A stretch of 64,000 nt of DNA from Octopus vulgaris (taxonomy: Eukaryota). The stretch is from assembly GCA_951406725.2 (NCBI GenBank), contig OX597816.1:157170001-157234000 (forward strand), in the 5' to 3' direction. The notes below the pieces were generated by a model. The model was not told the DNA's origin, searched no databases, and saw only the letters and a list, made by a program, of their open reading frames with translations. The translations under genes were made by a program, and so were the position numbers. Shown in pieces: positions 10,103 through 61,237 of this stretch. Every line of letters starts with the position of its first letter. The first letter of the stretch is position 1.

Positions 10103-10141
10103 TAGGCGCAAGAGTGGCTGTGTGGTAAGTAGCTTGCTTAC

Positions 10142-12256
10142 AGGTTGCTTCTGCTCATGTGCAAGTCAGTGTTGTACTTGACACCGAAGATGTAAGACGT
10201 GTTTTTGAAAGCCGTCTTAAATTAAGGTAAGAATTTTGGGGGTCTAGTGGGGACCTGTTGTATGTTGCAAATTATTTTTACAAGCAACAAGTCCTCACTA
10301 GGGTGTAGTCTGCCGGAGGCTGAGTGAAAATATTATTCACTTAATTGTGAAAATTATTAGTTTGGTAGGCGTATCCTGCCAAACTTCTGTTTGAAAATAG
10401 TGTTGTTCCTGTTAAGGAGTACCTAGAAGAAATTTAGAATGATTTTTAACTGTCTTACAGTTGTGTTAAATTTTGGCCGTAACGGTTAATTGAGAATTTT
10501 TTTGAAAATTCCTCTTGTGAATTCTAGTGGGCGTATCTCGCCAAAAAAATAAGAATAAACCATTTGGATTACCTTTTTGGAGTATTATACAAAGGATTCC
10601 CTGTCTGTGCTATTTGTGAGATTTTTCTTTTACTTTTCCCTTCTTCTATTATTTCTTTCTTTCTAAAAATTTTTGATTCATTCTTTTCATTACTTTAATT
10701 TCAGTTTCTTACCCTCCTCTTTTATTTTGTTTTATTTTTATTCGGTTTAATTTTTTGGCAGACTGTCTTTTGAACTACTTTTGAACTGTTTTTTGACATG
10801 GCAGAGAAGGAATTTAACAAGAAAAACTCTGTCTTAGAGTGGGAAATTAACCCGCCTAAGCAATGGTTAAAAGATATGGAAGAGAAGACGGTGGTACGTA
10901 AAACATATTCTAAAGTTCTTAATTCCATCACCGTCTTCCCAAAACAAGTAATAAAAAATGAACTTAAAGAACATTTGTCCTCTGTAAAATATATATCCCG
11001 TGGTGTCAAACATGCAACCGTATGGTTGCTGTTTGACAACGGGGAAAAGGCTAGCCAGTTTGCGAGTCAGCCTTTAGAAGGCAAGGAAATCCTGTTTCTC
11101 CCGTCATATTGTGGAAGAAAATTAATACGAGCCTGGATATGTGGCCTCCCCCCGGGCACCGAAGCGGATTGAATTGAAGATACCATCCGGCGGGGACTGG
11201 GAGATGGCGGGCCCAGGCTCTTAAATATAAGAGTATTGCCGGCGGCCGATTGGAAAGGGTCAAAAGCGATTTTGACCCTGTGGACCCCATCGGCAGCAAC
11301 AGAACTGGTTTTTCCAGATTTCTTGAAAATGGCTGGCTGCAGGTATCCGGTGATACTTGAGGGACGTCCCCCAACGTGTCACTCGTGCCTGCAGCCAGGC
11401 CACATTAAAAGGAACTGCCCCCAGGACCATGGTAAGGTCCTGGAACAGTCACCAGATGCCACCTCCCCTACCCGGTCAAAGGGAGAGGTGCATGTGGTCG
11501 AGGAGGCTTCAGCCTCCTCAACTCAAAAAGGATTAAAAAGGAAGAAGGCGGGGCAACAATAGTTGCCCGCCGAAAGAACCTAAGGCTTCGGGAGGCGGGG
11601 GAGAGTCTCCGGACAAAGCGGAAGGGCTCCACTCTCCCGAAGCCAGGAAGAAAAGAAAGAAGAACGGGTCATCTCAGCAGGGAGATGTGCTGACTGCATG
11701 TCCCGAAGTTGTGCCACCCACGGTGGAAGAAACCACCCCCACCCTTAAAGATGATCAATTAATTATCTTTTTCTACAAGGGCGGGGAGGTGGAAAAAATA
11801 GTAGAAGAACTTAAAGAAACAGTAGATATGCCCTTCACACGGGATCCCGAATGAGGCATGGGAAATGGCGGGATACAGGAACTCAAGCGGCATTGAAGAT
11901 AATGATGAATATATCGATGTATATATCGAAGAGTAGGAGGTGAAAGACCCTCGTTACAGAGTTTGAAACCTCACCTTATTGGATTATTTTGTAGTGGTTT
12001 ATAACCCAAATTTTGTGTTTTAAGAAAGAAAAAAGAAAATATGTTAAGTAAGAGGTTTTAGTGCCTCCTCATTGTAAAAGGTTCGAAACCTTATATTGAT
12101 TTTTAAAAAACAGAAAATGTGTTTTCGAGAAAAATCCAATCGGCGGGTGTTGGGTTTCGTCTCTCATTTATTCATTATAATTCATTTTCATTCATTAATG
12201 TGTTTGTCCAGCCCGCAAAGCTATTTGTACTGTCTATATGACAAATTTATGAAATA
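10142..12256 (+). mobile_element. ORF1-only non-autonomous retroposon (HAL1/Tx1-ORF1-like)
   Basis: Flanked by 15-bp TSD aagtagcttgcttac (10127-10141, 12257-12271); ends in aataaa; carries a gag-like ORF; no RT or endonuclease motif seen. Confidence 0.8.
10798..11940 (+). pseudogene. Gag/ORF1-like nucleic-acid-binding protein with CX2CX4HX4C zinc knuckle, disrupted
   Basis: ORFs 10798-11172 and 11236-11562 are in the same frame across one TGA; CHSCLQPGHIKRNC knuckle; RRM-like ATVWLLFDN.EKA; basic KRKK tracts; frameshifted continuation to about 11940. Confidence 0.8.
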
Positions 12257-12647
12257 AAGTAGCTTGCTTACGAACCACATGGTTCCGGGTTCAGTCCCAC
12301 TGCGTGGCACCTTGGGCAAGTGTCTTCTACTATAGCCTTGGGCCGACTAAAGCCTTGTGAGTGGATTTGGTAGACGGAAACTGAAAGAAGCCCGTCGTAT
12401 ATATGTATATGTATATATGTATGTGTGTGTGTATACATTTGTGTGTCTGTGTTTGTCCCCCACCCCAACATCACTTGACAACCGATACTGGTGTGTTTAC
12501 GTCCCCGTAACTTAGCGGTTCGGCAAAAGATACCGATAGAATAAGTACAAAGAATAAATCCTGGGGTCGATTTGCTCGATTAAAGGCAGTGCTCCAGCAT
12601 GGCCACAGTCAAATGACTGAAGCAAGCAAAAGAGTAAAAGAGGAAAG

Positions 12648-17849: not shown

Positions 17850-18185
17850 GGACCCAGAACTTCAATATGAATCTCCTGGAATGTAAGCAGGGTCCAAAGA
17901 CTTCCGTCCTGGAGTTTAGGATGTTTTCTGGTTCGAGGGACTTCTTTAATATCTTCGTCCGTTCAGCTAAGCACAGCTTACAACGCTTGCTCTCATTGAT
18001 GTAGAGGCCTAGTTTTTCTGGGACCTTCTATGAAATTATGTGTGGAGCGCCTTCGTTTTTCAGCTGCCATACATGGTTGGCTAAGAATGTAGCGTGTTTC
18101 TTCTCAGAGATTTTGAATGAGGATGTGTTGTTGGAGAGGCGCTCCTTGAATGTGTTTCCGGAACATCCGGTGTATCGTCGTGTAC
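17850..18185 (-). mobile_element. Penelope-like GIY-YIG endonuclease fragment
   Basis: Minus strand RRYTGCSGNTFKERLSN..SF..HATFLANHVWQLK..CKLCLAE..ILNSRTEVFGPCLH. Confidence 0.8.
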
Positions 18186-18469
18186 TGCTGCTGGTGACTA
18201 TGCTTCTGTTAATGTTGACGTGCTACTACTGCAGCAGCACCATCGCCAATGATAACAACAATAACAACGACAACAGCCACCACGATAGCGCCGATAACAG
18301 CTCCAACTGCAACAACGATTGCTATAGTAGCACTGAGAGTGCCAACACCAACAACGCCACTGATGATGTCCCCTATGCCAGCATTAAGGAAGCCAGCATC
18401 TACACCAACACCAACAACACCAGCAACAGTATAAGTGTCAGTGTCAACAGAAACAGCGTCATCAGCAGT

Positions 18470-18655
18470 AGTACACGAAGATACACCGAATGTTCCGGAA
18501 ACACATTCAAGCAGCGCCTCTCCAATCACAGATCCTCATTCAGGATCCCGGATAGGAGATACGCTAAGTTCTTAGCCAGCCATGCAAGGCAGCTGAAAGA
18601 CGACGAAGGAACTCCATACGTAATCTCGTGGGAGATGCTAGAAAAACCAGATCAA
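18470..18655 (+). mobile_element. Second, inverted Penelope GIY-YIG fragment
   Basis: RRYTECSGNTFKQRLSNHRSSF..FLASHARQLK..ISWEMLEK inside ORF 18038..18712. Confidence 0.78.
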
Positions 18656-18809
18656 TGGGAGCAAGAGTTTTTAAACGCAAATGATAGCGATCAATGCAGG
18701 GTTCCATACTAATATGAAAGTAGATGGAGGTAGAATATTATTTGATCCTAAATCCATTGCTTTTTTTAAAGTTTTTTTATTTTTTGTTTTCATGCATTAT
18801 CTTTTTGTT

Positions 18810-22229: not shown

Positions 22230-22570
22230 TTATATGTATAATAAACACATTTTATTCCCAATATTATAGGAGTGGGCTCTACCTATAAAACTCCTGTTAT
22301 GGGTGTACTCTCTTTTTCTGGATTTTAATTCCCATATATATTTTCTTAAGCCTGTGAACTTACTTAAATTTGGATTTTTAAAGGTCTGGTAATGTTGGGA
22401 TATTCTTTTTTCAATTTCATTAGCTGTTGATCCACTATAAACCTTATCTATAATTTTAATTTTTTTGTTCTTAGAGCTAACTATACATTTATAAATTACA
22501 TTATCGATATTACAATTATTAGAGACCTTACATTTAGTCTTATCACGACATGAACATTTTTCTATACATT
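22230..22570 (-). mobile_element. Penelope-like (Neptune-type) GIY-YIG endonuclease fragment
   Basis: KCSCRDKTKC..NNC..VIYKC...VYSGSTANEIEKRISQH..F..TGLRKYIWELK. Confidence 0.85.
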
Positions 22571-22663
22571 GATTAAGAAATCTATATATATATGTATGTA
22601 TGCGTGTGTCTTTGTATGTATTTATATGTATGTACATATGCATGTACATTTGTGTGTATATGA

Positions 22664-22704
<41 letters not shown>

Positions 22705-34989: not shown

Positions 34990-35828
34990 TTTTTTTTTTC
35001 TTCTTTCAAATTTTCTTCCATTTCTTGCCGAGTGTCTTCCCGACTCCTAGGGCAAAGAAACTCATAGTGTATATTGGTAAGCCATTAAACCAAACTCAGT
35101 AGTTCGTTCATTTTTTTTTTTTTTTTTTTTAAGTTAAATTAAAATACATGAGCAGCAACAGTTCTCACATCGACAATGCTCTTCTCAATACGTGTGATGT
35201 ACCAGTTAAGACAATCTTTTGCACTTCTTGCAGGGATGGTAAGCCAGGGATCATTCTCATATAATTTTCGGTTCCCTTCTTGATCATTCCTAATGCTCCT
35301 ACGATCACTGGTATTGTAACCGCCTTGAGATGCCACATTTTCTCAATTTCAATGAGTAGGTCTTTATATTTTCTGAGCTTGTCAAACTCTTTCGCTGAGA
35401 TATTATGATCGCAGGGGATGCTCATGTCGATCAATAAGCAAACTTTATTGTTTTGGTCTTTCACAACAATATCTGGTTTATTGGCCTTGATGGTTCGGTC
35501 TGTATGTACTGGAAAGTCCCACAGAATGGTTACATTTTCTCCTTCAGTTACAGCCTCAGGGTGGTGATTATACCACTTGTCGGCAGTTTTGATATTGTAA
35601 TGCCGACTTATTAGCCAGTGGAGATATTGGCCAACTCTGTCATGTCTTAATTTATACTCCACTGGTGCTAAGACTTTACATCCAGAGATTAGGTGGTCCA
35701 CTGTTTCAATCATGTCGTTGCAGAATCGGCATTTTGGGTCTGCTCCATTTTCATCACATTGGCCTGGTAGTTCCGGGTTAATAGGCTTTGGTCTTGAGCA
35801 GCCAGGATGAAACCTTCGCTCTCTGCTT
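34990..35828 (-). mobile_element. 5'-truncated R4/Dong-like LINE (restriction-like endonuclease)
   Basis: ESEGFILAAQDQ, CRFC..ETVDHLISGC, RHD, KPDIVV..LIDMS, EKxxKY, PVIVGALG; 3' end runs into (TAA)n. Confidence 0.88.
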
Positions 35829-35841
35829 TTTTTTTTTTTGC

Positions 35842-35875
<34 letters not shown>

Positions 35876-35879
35876 GGTT

Positions 35880-36770
35880 TGACTCAGGTTCGGTCTTATT
35901 TCTGGTAGCCTTTATATGGGTAGTGGGTTACTATCTGAAACTTTAGGTATCCACAAGTTTTTGGTAGTCTTTCAAGCGCTTAGAAACTTCCTGATAATCT
36001 TTGCTGCCCCTAAGAGACAAACGTTTTAAAGGAGGTTTGCAGGGCATTCTATTTCAGTCTCCTTCAGCCATTTCTCTATATCTTTGCTTTCTGTTCCCAC
36101 CACACAAATCATTATAGGCACGAGCTCTTTACTGTTCTCATGCTCCAAATTCTTCTTATTGCAAATTTTAAGGTGTTGTATTTTTTCTTTCATTCCTTCA
36201 TTTTGTTTTTGATTTTCGCCTTCTTTACGATCCTGTATGCAAACGAGCATGATGGGTCGATTAGTAAGCAACTGCGCGTTTCCCTATCTATAATTGTTAT
36301 GTCCGGTCTATTATTTTCTAACTTATTGTTCGTTTGAAGAGGAAAGTCACACAAAATTTAACATTTTTTCCGACCCCAGTACTTTTTCGAGCCGATGACT
36401 GTACCCTGTGTTTCCCGCTTCAAATCCCCATTTCTGGCAAGGTTTCCAGTGTAAAACTTTTACAGGTTGGTCGTGCCTCCATTTCCTATACTCTTCCTGT
36501 GCCAACTTGGAGCATTCTACCACAATGTGTGTCACTGTCACGTCCCAAGTTCCACAGGCTCTACATTTTTCTAACACATTCTCTGCATATATATTTTTTT
36601 CTCAAGTTATTTGTTTTTATCGCTTGGTCTTGGGATGCTAGAATTAGGCTCTCTGTTTCTTTCTGTTTTTTAATTGCCCCTTTTTTAACCAAGCTCAGGA
36701 TTTTGTTCCACATACATCTTCAGTGGCTCTCTAAAATTGGCCACACAGAGGTTTCTCTTCAATCTATCTG
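35880..36770 (-). mobile_element. Older, decayed R4/Dong-like LINE fragment
   Basis: KCRACG..TVTHIVVECSKLAQEEYRKWRHD..LHW; RPDI; 3' end runs into (TAA)n at 35845-35875. Confidence 0.82.
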
Positions 36771-38720: not shown

Positions 38721-38958
38721 GGTTGGACCTTTATTTTCAATAATTACAATTGTTTCAACGCAACGTAGTTCTCCAGACATGCAGGTACTTGATTATGAGA
38801 CCGTTTTCCTGCATTATGAGACAATATTTACATATCACCTGAGGAAACACATCTAGATCTCACAAAGCATGAAAACGGTTTCAGAATCAAGTAGCTGCGC
38901 GCCTGGAGAACTACGTTACGTAGAAACAATTGTAGTGATTGAAAATAAATCTCCAACC
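38721..38958. repeat. Diverged ~100-bp inverted repeat with hammerhead-like motif
   Basis: Arms 38721-38822 and 38858-38958; CTGGAGA-actacgttacgta-GAAA-CAATTG-TA-gtg. Confidence 0.72.
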
Positions 38959-39028
38959 GTATTTCTTTTTTTTTACTCCAAATTTGTTCAATTATTCAGA
39001 TATATACGTATATATATATATATATATA

Positions 39029-40254
39029 TTGGAATCCGTGGAAAAGTTCTACACTGGATTAAGTATTTCCTGGCGAATAGAACACAACATGTTGTAGTTG
39101 ATGGAGTCCACTCAAACCCACCAAAAGTCACCAGCGGTGTTCCCCAGGGAACTGTTTTGGGTCCGCTACTCTTCATAATTTACGTAAACGACCTTTCCAG
39201 TGTCGTACATCACTGCAAAGTGAAAATATTCGCTGATGACACTAAGCTCCAGCAAATCGTCAATGAAGAAGCAGACCGAACTCAACTCCAGTCTGATCTA
39301 TATGCTGTGAGTCAATGGGCAGACAGAAACAAAATGCAACTGAATGAGGGAAAATTTGAGCTGATGCATTTTGGAAGAAATTCCTCACTAAAACAACCAT
39401 ACTCTCTTCCTTCAGGGGAACCGCTCACAGCCTCTAACAATATCAGAGACCTGGGTGTAATTGTTGATGACGATCTCAGTTGGAGTGCACACATCAACAA
39501 GAAGGTCGATATAGCTCGTAGGATGAGTTCCTGGATCTTAAGAACTTTCCGGTCCAGAGAACAAGGTGTCATCATACCACTTTTTTCCTCCTTTGTACGG
39601 CCACACCTTGAATACTGCTGCCCACTGTGGTCTCCTCACACAAGACAAAACATCTCCAGAATTGAGTCACCCCAGAGGGCTCTCACTAAACAAATTGAAG
39701 GCATGGCTGCTCTCGATTATTGGGATCGCCTTAAAGCCCTGAAACTTTACTCCCTCCAGCGTCGCCGTGAGCGGTACATCATTTGTACGATGTGGAAAAT
39801 ATACCGCCAACTTTGCCCAAACGACCTAAACATTAGCTTCAAGGTTCATCCAAGACTTGGACCACGGGCTATACGTCCCCTGCCAAATTCAAGATCACAA
39901 CATACATGTACACTGTAACATAATTTCTTTTCCTCAACAGGCCCTGCCCTATTTAACATTGTCCCGAGGGAGATCAAAGAGGAAAAGGATCCCATCAACT
40001 TTAAACAGAGTCTGGATAGATTCCTTCAAAGAATACCAGATAAGCCACCCATAATTGGATACAACTCACCCAACAAGAACTCACTACTTGAACAAAACTG
40101 GATACAACTCACCCAACAAGAACTCACTACTTGAACAAAACTTGACTTAAACAGGATTCGAATAATCCTATCAGGTGGTGCTATTAAGTTAGACATGGCC
40201 TGGACCAATCTCTGGTCGAAACATATCTAAGTTTTATCTAAGTTTCTAAGTTTT
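39029..40254 (+). mobile_element. 5'-truncated CR1/L2-group LINE (RT C-terminal half + 3' UTR)
   Basis: SGVPQGTVLGPLLFIIYVND, FADDTKL, RDLGV, VRPHLEYC, SLQRRRERY; one premature stop at 39918; 43-bp duplication at 40057-40142; tail (tctaagttt)n. Confidence 0.93.
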
Positions 40255-49356: not shown

Positions 49357-50280
49357 GTTAGTTAGTTAGTTAGTTAGTTAATTTTTTTGGCTCAAAAAGC
49401 AAAAAGCAAGGCCATGTAGGGGGACATGGAGTTATGTACAGGGTGGTGTTCATGTAAAGAGTTCAGGCCACTTGAGGTCCAGGGAGACTTTGAACAAAGC
49501 GGTCGTCGGCATCTTCACCATCTCGTCTGGCAGCTTGTTCCATGGATCCGCAACCCGGACGGAGAAAGCCCCTCTCCTTCGATTGAGATGAAATCGTCGC
49601 AGATAGAGCTTTTCGGAATGACCCCGCAGCCGACGCTCTGGAGCAGGAGTGAAGAACAGCTCTTTCGAGAGGTTACACTTTCCGCTTATGATGTTTTGAG
49701 CGAGAATGAAATCACCACGGCGGCGGCGTTTTTCTAGAGAAGAAAGGTCGAGCGTCTTCAGCCTTTCTTCATAAGACAAATTCTTGAGACCATGAACCAT
49801 GCGGGTAGCCAGCTTCTGGACTCTTTCGAGATGCTGTATGTATTTGAGGAGATAAGGAGAAGAGGCTTGAATCCCGTACTCCAATGTGGGTCTCACCAGC
49901 GTGACATAGAGCGGTAAGAATATGGCTGCTGTGAGCATTCCGAATGACCGTCGAATCAAGAACAGAATTTCGCGTGCTTTGTTGGCAGCATAGACGCACT
50001 GGGCCGAAGGCGAAAAGGAGAATCCACCAAGATACCCAGGTCCTTTACCTGATCGGTCCTCTCCAGCAGCAGACGACCCGGCTCGAAATCAAGTTGAGTT
50101 GCAGGAGGAGAGCCAACAGGCAGATGACAGCACTTTGACACGTTCAGCACAGGTCCCATTCGTTAGACCACCTCCAAATTTGGTGGAGACATCGACGAAG
50201 ATCCTCTATATCACCGCGAGGAGCGACCAGTTTGACATCGTCGGCAAATAGAAGGGTGTGTTGCGTGAGGTCGAGGTTAT
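49357..50280 (-). mobile_element. 5'-truncated CR1/L2-group LINE
   Basis: LLFADDVKL, KDLGI, VRPTLEYG, LERVQKLATR, LRGH, FSVRV..WNKLP; (TAAC)n tail. Confidence 0.9.
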
Positions 50281-58295: not shown

Positions 58296-61237
58296 CATAG
58301 CTTCCCAAAGTGAGTGATGGACGAATTAGTAGAAAATGGTGGGCGATATGAGCATTTTGTGGGTGACAATGAATTTTTAGAAAGTAAGTCTACATTTACT
58401 GATATCTAGGCTTGCTCAGAATATGGATTCACGTTTATCAATTAGATTACTCGCTTGAGACGTCACTTTGTATTTAAAAACGGACTTGTTAATCAATCGA
58501 ATATTTTTGTAGCAGTCATGGCGATGGTTGTCATGTGTGCTAAAAATAGCAGCCAAATGGGCCTAAGCCTTAAATCACACTCCACCACAATTTCTTTTTT
58601 TTTTTTTTCATTTTTAGCATAGTCGTATGAATTCCAGCCTATAGAATTCAAATTTGCAAACATTTTCTGAAAACTTCAAAACATAAAAAGTTTTGAGGGG
58701 TTATGTGTCGTACGTAATTCTGTGGTTTCATACCAAACACAAATGCTATTTTCAGGGTGTTGACAAAATGTGCAGTCACGCACAAATTGACAGCTTTGAA
58801 ATCGTGTTTCTTGACTGGGTGAAACTTTAAACCTCTATAACTTCTTTAAAACATTTTTCTGGAAAAAGTCGAATAACTCTAGCAATTTAATATGGAAAGG
58901 TACATTAATGAGCCAAATGTTAAATTGTTGATAGGATTTAATTTTTTAAATGCTGGCAGCCAAACGAACTAGATCCGTATTTGCTCCAGTAAAGACTATC
59001 ATCTGACTGTGCTCTATTGACTTCTTCTCTTTGGGAGTAGCATACTGACTTTCTAATGCGGTCTGTAGGAATTCGTTTTCACATTTTCACTTTACTGATG
59101 CCTCCAGTCAAGAAGATTTGTCGACAGTACAGTAAGGATTATTTAACATTTGGATTTATTCCCTCTCCTCAGAACTGTCAGTTACCAATGTGCCTTCTTT
59201 GCCACCAATGAAGCAATGAAACCTTCATACTTGAAGTAACATTTTGATGCAAATAATTCTGACAAGAAGGACAAGCCGATATCATACATTTTGCAACTGA
59301 GCTTCTCTTTCGAAAAGCAAATACAAACATTCAACTCGCTACTCCAAGAAACTAGTAAACAGGATAATGACGGGTCGATTGCATCGTACAACATTGCATT
59401 GCTAGTTGCTAAGTTTGGGACGTTTCACACAATTGGAGAAACATTACTTCACCCAGTTATTGAAGAGGTTTTGTCAACCATTATGCTTGAAAAAACCGAT
59501 AACATTACGAAGAAGATACCACTTAGTAATAACACAATTTCTCGACGCATGGCCAACGATGTCAAACCTCAGCTCATTCATATTCTCCAGCTTTCTGAAT
59601 TTTCTATACAAGTGGATGAGTCAACTGTTGAAGACAGTCGATGTTTGATGATGGTATATGTGCAGTATTTCAGTGAAGACCTTCAACCTTGTGAGGAAAT
59701 GCTGTTCGCAGAGAAATTGCCGTTTGATTCAAAAGGTGCAACTATTTTTCTCACACTCAAGTCTTATCTTTTTGAACATGATATCCCACTCAATAATATT
59801 GCTGTGCGTCTGGTGGAGCCCCTTCGATAATAGAAAAACAGAGAGGGTTTTTTTATCTCTCCTAAAGCGTGATATTTCCCACCAGATATTAACAGTTCAT
59901 TACTTGGCACACTGACAAAAAATATGAACAGAATATTGAGTGATGCGCTACAAGTTAGTTATCAAGACTGCGAACAAATTGAAGTCCAGTCCCATGCCTA
60001 ATCAAATTTTCCGTCAAATATGTCTGAGAAATGATGAGGACCATGCAAAACTCTTATACCATACCAAAGTGTGGTGGCTGTCAAAAGGAAACTGTGTTTT
60101 ACGCTTTGTTGAACTGTTTCATATAATTATATCTTTCTTTGAAGATACTCCACTATCCGCTTTATTGATGGCTGCAAGATGCTATGTCTTTTTTCTTTGT
60201 GATATATTCACGAACTTAAATGATTTCAATAAGTTATTGCAAGGAAGCAGAAATCTCTCGTTCATTGTAAATCATTTATCACTACCTTCATTTCGAAATT
60301 GGTGTTGTATAAGACTAACATCTCAAAACGTTAATTCCATCAATTTCCACAATTGAAAGATGAATTGCTTGATGAGGATTTTGCTACATATCGCAACTAT
60401 TTACAATCATTGCACGATAACATGGTGGAGCAATTTCAAGATGTTATTGCACTGAATATTCCAAATTGGTATAGCGATCCATTTAAGGTCGATGCAGTCG
60501 ACTGCAAGGACGACGTTCAGGAGGAATTGATAGAATTACAAAATGACAATGATGACACAATGTGATATCACCGTAATGGCAAAGAAAGTTTGTAGTACCA
60601 TCAGAGTATATTGAATTCCTACCCCAATCTGTGGAAACATCTGATATTACTTTTGCTTACCCTTCCTACCACATACTTAATTGAATCTGGTTTTACCCAT
60701 GTTGGAACTTTACTTTCCCAAAAAACAATTGGACTGGATGTGACAGAACGGGAAAACTTGCGGCTAAAGTTGACAAATTTGAAACCGAATGTATCTGCAC
60801 TAGTTGCATTGCACCAGACACATGGTTCTCATTAAAAACGTTTTATTCTTTTCCTTTATAATACAATCATTAACTATTTTCCATCGGTAGTTCTGATCAA
60901 TAGTTCATTTGGGGAAAATGAAAATTAGTGTAAAAAAAGCGCAAGCTTCCAGAAGTTAATCTGTCTGCATAATATAGAGTTAACGTTAGCATTTTATGCA
61001 CACTAATGGCAAAACTAAACCCATGATAAGAGATTTGTAAAGAACCGCATATTTAGTCCAAACGGCACTAACATGGAAACGAGTCTACGATATAGTGAGT
61101 GTGTGTCAAATGCTACGAGGGGGGAAAGCCCTGGAGGTTTAGTGTTGGGGTCTTTTTATACAAGTGGGCGATGGAGCATTTTTTGGCCGATAGGTGGGCG
61201 ATATTGCAATTTGGTGTGAAAAGTTTGGGAAACACTG
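58296..61237 (+). mobile_element. hAT Buster/Charlie-type DNA transposon, full length
   Basis: TIRs catagcttcccaaa / tttgggaaacactg; 8-bp TSD ctctatac (58288-58295) / ctctatat (61238-61245) with central TA. Confidence 0.9.
59098..60835 (+). pseudogene. Buster-type hAT transposase (ZBED5/SCAND3-like), disrupted
   Basis: RQYSKDYLTFGF, HTIGETL, IPLSNNTISRR, FSIQVDEST, LLYHTKVWWLSKG, PTTYLIESGF, LRLKLT; stops and frameshifts. Confidence 0.92.

Follow-up and report, generated by a model that had tools for sequence, protein, structure and literature searches.

A decayed retroposon copy in the head of an Octopus vulgaris SINE, probably from an ORF1-only family moved in trans

What kind of element leaves behind a copy with an ORF1 and no ORF2? 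The question is raised by an insert in the Octopus vulgaris genome, located in a 64,000-nucleotide stretch of contig OX597816.1 (positions 157,170,001 to 157,234,000 of the forward strand). This whole stretch is referred to below as the window; its own numbering is used throughout, and features lie on the + strand unless marked otherwise. The insert is probably an end-to-end, though decayed, copy from a HAL1-like Octopus family of high copy number, which would encode only ORF1 and be moved in trans by an autonomous LINE.

The boundaries of the insert are well defined. The sequence AAGTAGCTTGCTTAC occurs twice as perfect 15-bp repeats, at 10127-10141 on the left and 12257-12271 on the right, with 2115 bp between them, which agrees with the original prediction, and neither side is extendable. 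An abundant Octopus SINE is interrupted by the insert within its head. The 5' SINE head (10105-10141), which we take to be tRNA-like with an A-box-like motif, aligns with three other SINE heads of the window at 87-92% identity. The rest of the interrupted host SINE (12257-12641) consists of a B-box-like motif, body, microsatellite and tail, and is 74-83% identical over ~385 bp to four window copies; its body is 96.6% identical to that of the nearest window copy. Five uninterrupted SINE paralogues in the window each contain a single 15-mer, either exact or variant, and joints in which the SINE flanks meet without the insert are present in contigs of all four sequencing runs considered below. 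Because uninterrupted copies hold the 15-mer once and flank-to-flank joints occur, the repeats represent a true target-site duplication (TSD), and because the 15-mer belongs to the SINE head and is single in the five paralogues, a chance origin of the repeat is implausible. The clean 15-bp TSD that had been claimed thus survives scrutiny, with one nuance: the AATAAA at 12253-12258 shares two bases with the right repeat, and therefore the TSD can be read as 13-15 bp and there is no poly(A) tail. A search for a poly(A) or simple-repeat tail at the 3' end of the insert found none, and the insert ends within AATAAA. SINE-like matches account for 3% of the window, in which ARAGORN detected no tRNA gene.

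The insert opens with a 5' leader of 656 bp (10142-10797), in line with the ~650 bp predicted, with 33% GC and four ATGs upstream of the ATG at 10798. This leader is the presumed internal promoter, and its first 40 bp are also found in contigs of all four runs. The ORF that follows is broken. Its first frame (10798-11562) contains two RRM-like domains and a CCHC knuckle and is interrupted by an in-frame stop at 11170-11172. Past a frameshift near 11550, the second frame (11537-11854) encodes a basic low-complexity linker and the start of a presumed C-terminal domain. A frame-changing junction with a 5-bp overlap (11849-11853) then leads into a 38-codon segment in the third frame (11850-11966), which has one internal stop and is probably the end of ORF1. 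The last stop of the ORF is 11964-11966, and the remaining ~290 bp (11967-12256, 30% GC) form a 3' UTR ending in the AATAAA that overlaps the right repeat, which agrees with the ~300 bp and terminal aataaa expected. When the insert was searched against Pfam in all six frames, with stops read as X, zf-CCHC was the only family detected; RT and EN families were absent at E<=1. Repeats of LTR length are absent from the insert, within which the longest repeat family is shorter than 25 nt, and the description of the insert as lacking RT, EN and LTR therefore holds. Folding of the 3' end is no better than that of shuffles (z -0.39), and none of 21 Rfam matches at E<=5 attains its gathering score.

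The ORF had been described as a single disrupted frame with an RRM-like domain and a CCHC knuckle. The single broken ORF and the zf-CCHC domain are confirmed, but two RRM folds are predicted, not one. In a structure model of a homologue, built from 37 sequences (mean pLDDT 81), residues 14-102 resemble the La RRM 1zh5_A (Z 8.9, rmsd 2.6, 82 aligned) and residues 103-183 resemble U2AF65 RRM1 5w0g_A (Z 7.8, rmsd 2.8, 74 aligned). Carried from the model to the window via the protein alignment, the first predicted RRM corresponds to 10849-11115, and the second occupies 11116-11370. These Z values are middling, and RRMs dominate the match list; a Foldseek search with the same model places tandem-RRM proteins on top (E 5e-6), with low whole-chain TM. 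A single CCHC zinc knuckle follows at 11374-11424 (PF00098, residues 193-209, 21.6 bits, above the Pfam cut-off of 20.8; E 2.2e-4). Type I LINE ORF1 proteins are described as having a CCHC knuckle directly preceded by one or more RRMs (PMC4120745), and the window ORF, with two predicted RRMs and its knuckle, has the predicted architecture of such a protein. In a sequence search of the PDB, the knuckle region, and that region only, matches retroviral nucleocapsids, as might be cited in favor of a gag remnant of an LTR element or another insertion that did not use target-primed reverse transcription. However, the knuckle is preceded by tandem RRM folds and not by a capsid fold, terminal repeats are absent, LTR integrases leave duplications of 4-6 bp, shorter than the 15-bp TSD, and the family displays the 5' truncation gradient described below, all of which render a gag remnant scarcely credible.

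Among 316 candidate proteins, the sole match to the window ORF is Octopus sinensis LOC115225585, a protein of 281 aa with 64% identity. It is open at the window's first stop and across the first frameshift, and the second frame prolongs the match to residues 241-280 (47.5% over 40 aa); a one-base gap at 11550 is present in 14, 22, 8 and 2 contigs of the four runs. A profile made from these two sequences recovers 78 proteins at E<=0.001. An organism is named for 11 of the 21 relatives that were looked up, and all 11 are from octopods (three Octopus species and Argonauta hians). These 11 are filed as host proteins, mostly uncharacterized or CCHC-type, but are probably transposon ORF1s. Across 37 family members, zf-CCHC is detected in 23 and Transposase_22 in none at E<=0.1. 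Several relatives (P0003, P0018, P0019, P0021, P0032, P0040, P0068 and P0076) have in common a C-terminal domain of ~85 aa with a Y-x-x-L-K-x-x-F-P-x-D-V-G-like motif, for which there is no Pfam match; its profile also matches eight proteins of the P0036 cluster (E<=1e-14) and does not recognize the tail frames of the window ORF. When 30 candidates (82-263 aa) were searched with the C-terminal frame of the window ORF, none proved homologous. The gene model of one further relative, P0009 (O. sinensis XP_029639579.1), combines 46 residues like the N-terminus of the window ORF with an integrase core, and is probably another copy in or beside an LTR element.

The annotation of LOC115225585 as a gene, under three accessions, allows a different interpretation, namely that the insert is a processed pseudogene of a host RRM-RRM-CCHC gene, either ZCCHC3-like or a domesticated ORF1. 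An intronless insert that is bounded by a TSD and terminated by AATAAA accords with such an origin. ZCCHC3-type proteins (PF23057/PF23058 plus PF00098) likewise contain two RNA-binding domains and a knuckle, as does the Octopus ORF1, and the Atlas feature score against ZCCHC3-type clusters is 0.90 for P0002 and P0040, which is a lead only. The PF23057 and PF23058 models match none of the 37 members at E<=0.1, and the literature search yielded nothing linking ZCCHC3 with Tx1. A host pseudogene is nonetheless highly improbable: the nearest Octopus protein is just 64% identical, octopods have many divergent paralogues (17-32% identity), and the sequencing runs contain the insert at hundreds-fold summed depth, with variant contigs numbering in the dozens at single places; each of the three non-RNA runs also displays a gradient of 5' truncation.

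This last body of evidence comes from contigs of four public runs (X7, X3, X9 and X15) from three organisms, of which X15 is RNA by guess only. Parts of the insert are present in 20 of the 24 runs listed, with at most 0.42 of the insert's words, and no run catalogued as RNA is among these 20. Contigs cover 30 of 30 bins in the three non-RNA runs and 28 of 30 in X15, and up to 66 contigs share one variant at a single place. Depth was expressed relative to the median of eight listed long contigs per run, and the resulting values are to be read as orders of magnitude and not as copy numbers. In the 3' half of the ORF, summed depth is ~495 (X7), ~927 (X3) and ~336 (X9) times the reference median, and near the 5' end it is ~22, ~66 and ~35 times that median, respectively; the climb from 5' to 3' is found in all three non-RNA runs (rho 0.79-0.81). 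The insert thus belongs to a multicopy non-LTR retroposon family, as had been proposed; it cannot be a single-copy element, and it is unlikely to be a retrocopy of a host gene. Four of the 24 listed non-RNA contigs have an internal start other than 11849, preceded by 40-641 unlike letters, as would 5'-truncated copies. Within 10445-10600, all three non-RNA runs display a step in depth, an increase of ~3- to 7-fold located near 10480-10520. Contig X15-1, for its part, has 175 unlike letters before it joins the insert at 10477. In most family copies the 5' end may be shorter than in the window copy, or different from it. The SINE flanks swamped the joints and loose ends, with 14 of the best 15 of 552 joint rows being empty SINE sites. 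Within the window, no second copy of the insert was detected by blastn or by tblastn with 82 proteins, the latter giving one weak match outside the insert (E 0.002).

The runs also permit a comparison of the window copy with the remainder of its family. The first stop codon (11170-11172) is missing from >99% of the depth in all four runs and is private to the window copy. Among the best 40 of 208 rows, near-fixed differences in the ORF comprise 6 synonymous and 14 non-synonymous changes, and the synonymous share expected at random is 23-28%, which fits neutral decay of this copy. Because the first stop is private and the synonymous share is near random, the window copy appears to have decayed neutrally from an open source.

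The junction at 11849-11853 is more problematic. Contigs with a variant at 11811 (37 in X7, 39 in X3 and 17 in X9) reach at most 43 letters to their aligned end, which is 11853. Three of the listed contigs end at this position, and two of them, X3-15 and X7-23, continue with 132 and 128 unlike letters. Two listed contigs begin at 11849; one of these, X9-31, is preceded by 141 unlike letters and then covers 11849-12176, and X15-7 covers 11927-12091. No contig among those listed bridges 11849-11853. The family is therefore not colinear through this point, and the window copy lost a segment there; the 5-base overlap and the change of frame point to a probable deletion in the window copy, and 2115 bp is therefore not the family length. 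The original prediction of a protein-coding non-autonomous family is accordingly upheld as regards a multicopy retroposon with a type I ORF1 and a window copy without ORF2, but its 2115-bp structure is not family-wide.

The lost segment could have comprised either the remainder of ORF1 or a whole ORF2. If it was the latter, the family would be an ordinary autonomous LINE of ~5.5-6 kb with both ORFs. A single event in the window copy, either a microhomology-bounded deletion or a template switch, would then have taken away the end of ORF1 together with almost all of ORF2, and the 38-codon segment would be the end of ORF2. The departure of the family from the window copy at the junction, with its frame change, is compatible with this. 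So are the distant relatives P0068, P0084, P0086 and P0087, which are found on contigs of 5.4-6.2 kb, the size of an autonomous LINE (judged by size alone), and the recent L1-Tx1 insertions of O. vulgaris, which total 2,288,644 bp in 421 copies, or ~5.4 kb each (PMC13282606, Table 1). Another cluster of relatives, again judged by size alone, is found on four contigs of 1849-1930 nt. However, there is no step in depth at the junction. The ratio of depth after the junction to depth before it is 0.78, 1.00 and 1.02 in the three non-RNA runs, whereas the ratio expected from the ORF1 gradient (0.7-1.25 per kb) is 1.6-2.4 if the gap measures 150 bp and 19-153 if it measures 3.5 kb. This parity favors a short loss over that of a 3.5-kb ORF2, although the test is not decisive, because the slope minus two standard errors predicts merely 1.4-10.8 for the 3.5-kb gap. 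It is also improbable that a deletion confined to this copy would take out almost the whole of ORF2 and hardly anything more, as both breakpoints would have to fall in narrow windows. Neither the 38-codon segment nor the junction flanks match a Pfam family, and no ORF1-ORF2 fusion turned up in 8000 scored candidates (1508-4305 aa), although this last result carries little weight. We consider a deleted autonomous LINE unlikely on these grounds; were it correct, the insert would be an ordinary deleted LINE copy of little interest. It is likely instead that the family has no ORF2 of its own. When the segments flanking the junction were compared with the C-terminal domain of the relatives, 78 and 105 of 200 shuffles equaled the real score, and searches of metagenome contigs, viral contigs and prokaryote genomes for the DNA context of the relatives returned nothing.

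A route by which such an ORF1-only family could spread is suggested by the anatomy of the insert and by HAL1, HeT-A and Ag-Sponge (PMC5786205, PMC5753468). The source copy would be transcribed from its leader, and the ORF1p that it makes would coat its own RNA. A foreign ORF2p would then be recruited from an autonomous LINE for reverse transcription. In the ensuing target-primed reverse transcription, nicking at T|AAG by the borrowed enzyme would give rise to a duplication of 13-15 bp, and the 5' end would frequently be lost during copying. Neutral decay, including a short microhomology-bounded deletion, would follow. L1/Tx1, the partner originally predicted, appears to be the likeliest donor, given the long TSD, which fits L1-type insertion, the terminal AATAAA and the active L1-Tx1 families of O. 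vulgaris. Thirteen L1-Tx1 families are reported as recently active in this species (PMC13282606). No partner element sharing the 3' end of the insert is present in the window. The ORF1 protein does not name the partner clade, because type I ORF1 proteins span many clades, including Tx1; I, Jockey, R1, Tad1, plant L1 and L2 are listed among them (PMC4120745).

ORF1-only derivatives have been described from L1 (HAL1), Jockey (HeT-A) and CR1 (Ag-Sponge); in these bipartite elements, the encoded protein probably forms multimers with its counterpart from the autonomous partner (PMC5786205). HAL1, the half-L1 of mammals, is non-autonomous, encodes ORF1p only and has several independent origins (PMC5753468), and the window copy of the Octopus insert is also ORF1p-only. 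However, mammalian L1 ORF1p is mostly type II, with Transposase_22 (PMC5203782), and a HAL1 in the narrow sense would derive from the L1 clade and have such an ORF1 (coiled coil-RRM-CTD), whereas that of the Octopus insert is type I, with two predicted RRMs and a CCHC knuckle. The Octopus insert is therefore not a HAL1 in the strict sense, and, unlike HAL1, this copy has no poly(A) tail. The ORF1 of Jockey is type I like that of the Octopus insert, but has three knuckles and not one (PMC4120745). The insert was compared with HeT-A and Ag-Sponge at the level of published descriptions. HeT-A sits in a telomeric array, whereas the Octopus insert is dispersed and lies in a SINE.

LINEs of the Tx1 clade (Tx1, Keno, Kibi/Koshi and Tx1-Mar) have RRM/zf-CCHC variants of ORF1 (PMC5203782) and share this feature with the Octopus insert, which differs in having no ORF2 and for which one site is known. 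Many Tx1 LINEs favor targets inside repeats or RNA genes (PMC4494074). The SINE-head site is suggestive of Tx1 because Tx1 families often prefer targets within other repeats, but SINEs make up 11.6% of the O. vulgaris genome (PMC13282606), and a single site shows nothing about targeting. In a more elaborate version, to which we give little credence, an ORF1-only family would have reached hundreds of copies across several Octopus species by exploiting a sequence-specific endonuclease of Tx1, whose target would be the tRNA-like head of the most common SINE in the genome. The family would then be just one among numerous half-LINE lineages of octopods that have an undescribed C-terminal domain in common. 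If true, one parasite, which codes for a protein and lives off a LINE, would be targeting another.

Mammals and insects are already known to have elements with this ORF1-only way of life. To the L1, Jockey and CR1 cases (PMC5786205), a molluscan family of high copy number with a type I ORF1 would contribute a further, independent origin. Such a family would also let one ask, in a natural setting, why an element that is not autonomous continues to produce an RNA chaperone of its own. It would matter for annotation as well, as ORF1-only elements are unclassifiable by RT-based pipelines. The literature search found no ORF1-only element described in cephalopods; repeat libraries (Repbase, Dfam and the Zenodo deposit of PMC13282606) lay outside this search and may hold the family under an automatic name. 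In the text available from each source, the supplement of PMC13282606 does not mention HAL1, ORF1 or non-autonomous elements, and PMC9115989 mentions neither Tx1 nor non-autonomous elements.

Other elements are scattered through the window. A LINE ORF2 fragment at 38857-39918 (+) matches RVT_1 (E 4e-13), and a second, at 49450-50088 (-), has no Pfam match and presumably represents a CR1-type C-terminus; neither has DNA in common with the insert by blastn. A 248-aa open frame at 35165-35911 (-) has a weak zf-RVT match (E 0.012), and we take it to be the C-terminus of an R4/Dong-type LINE. Open frames at 18005-18712 (+) and 22230-22703 (-) presumably correspond to Penelope GIY-YIG ends, and that at 59240-59830 (+) to a hAT-type transposase, labels that a Pfam search of these three frames left unconfirmed. 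Within the insert itself (10142-12256), 14 of the best 40 differences are an A in the window against a G in the reads and 8 are a C against a T, with most contexts of this skew not being CpG. Finally, the 5' leader contains an imperfect 19-bp repeat, at 10365 and 10527.
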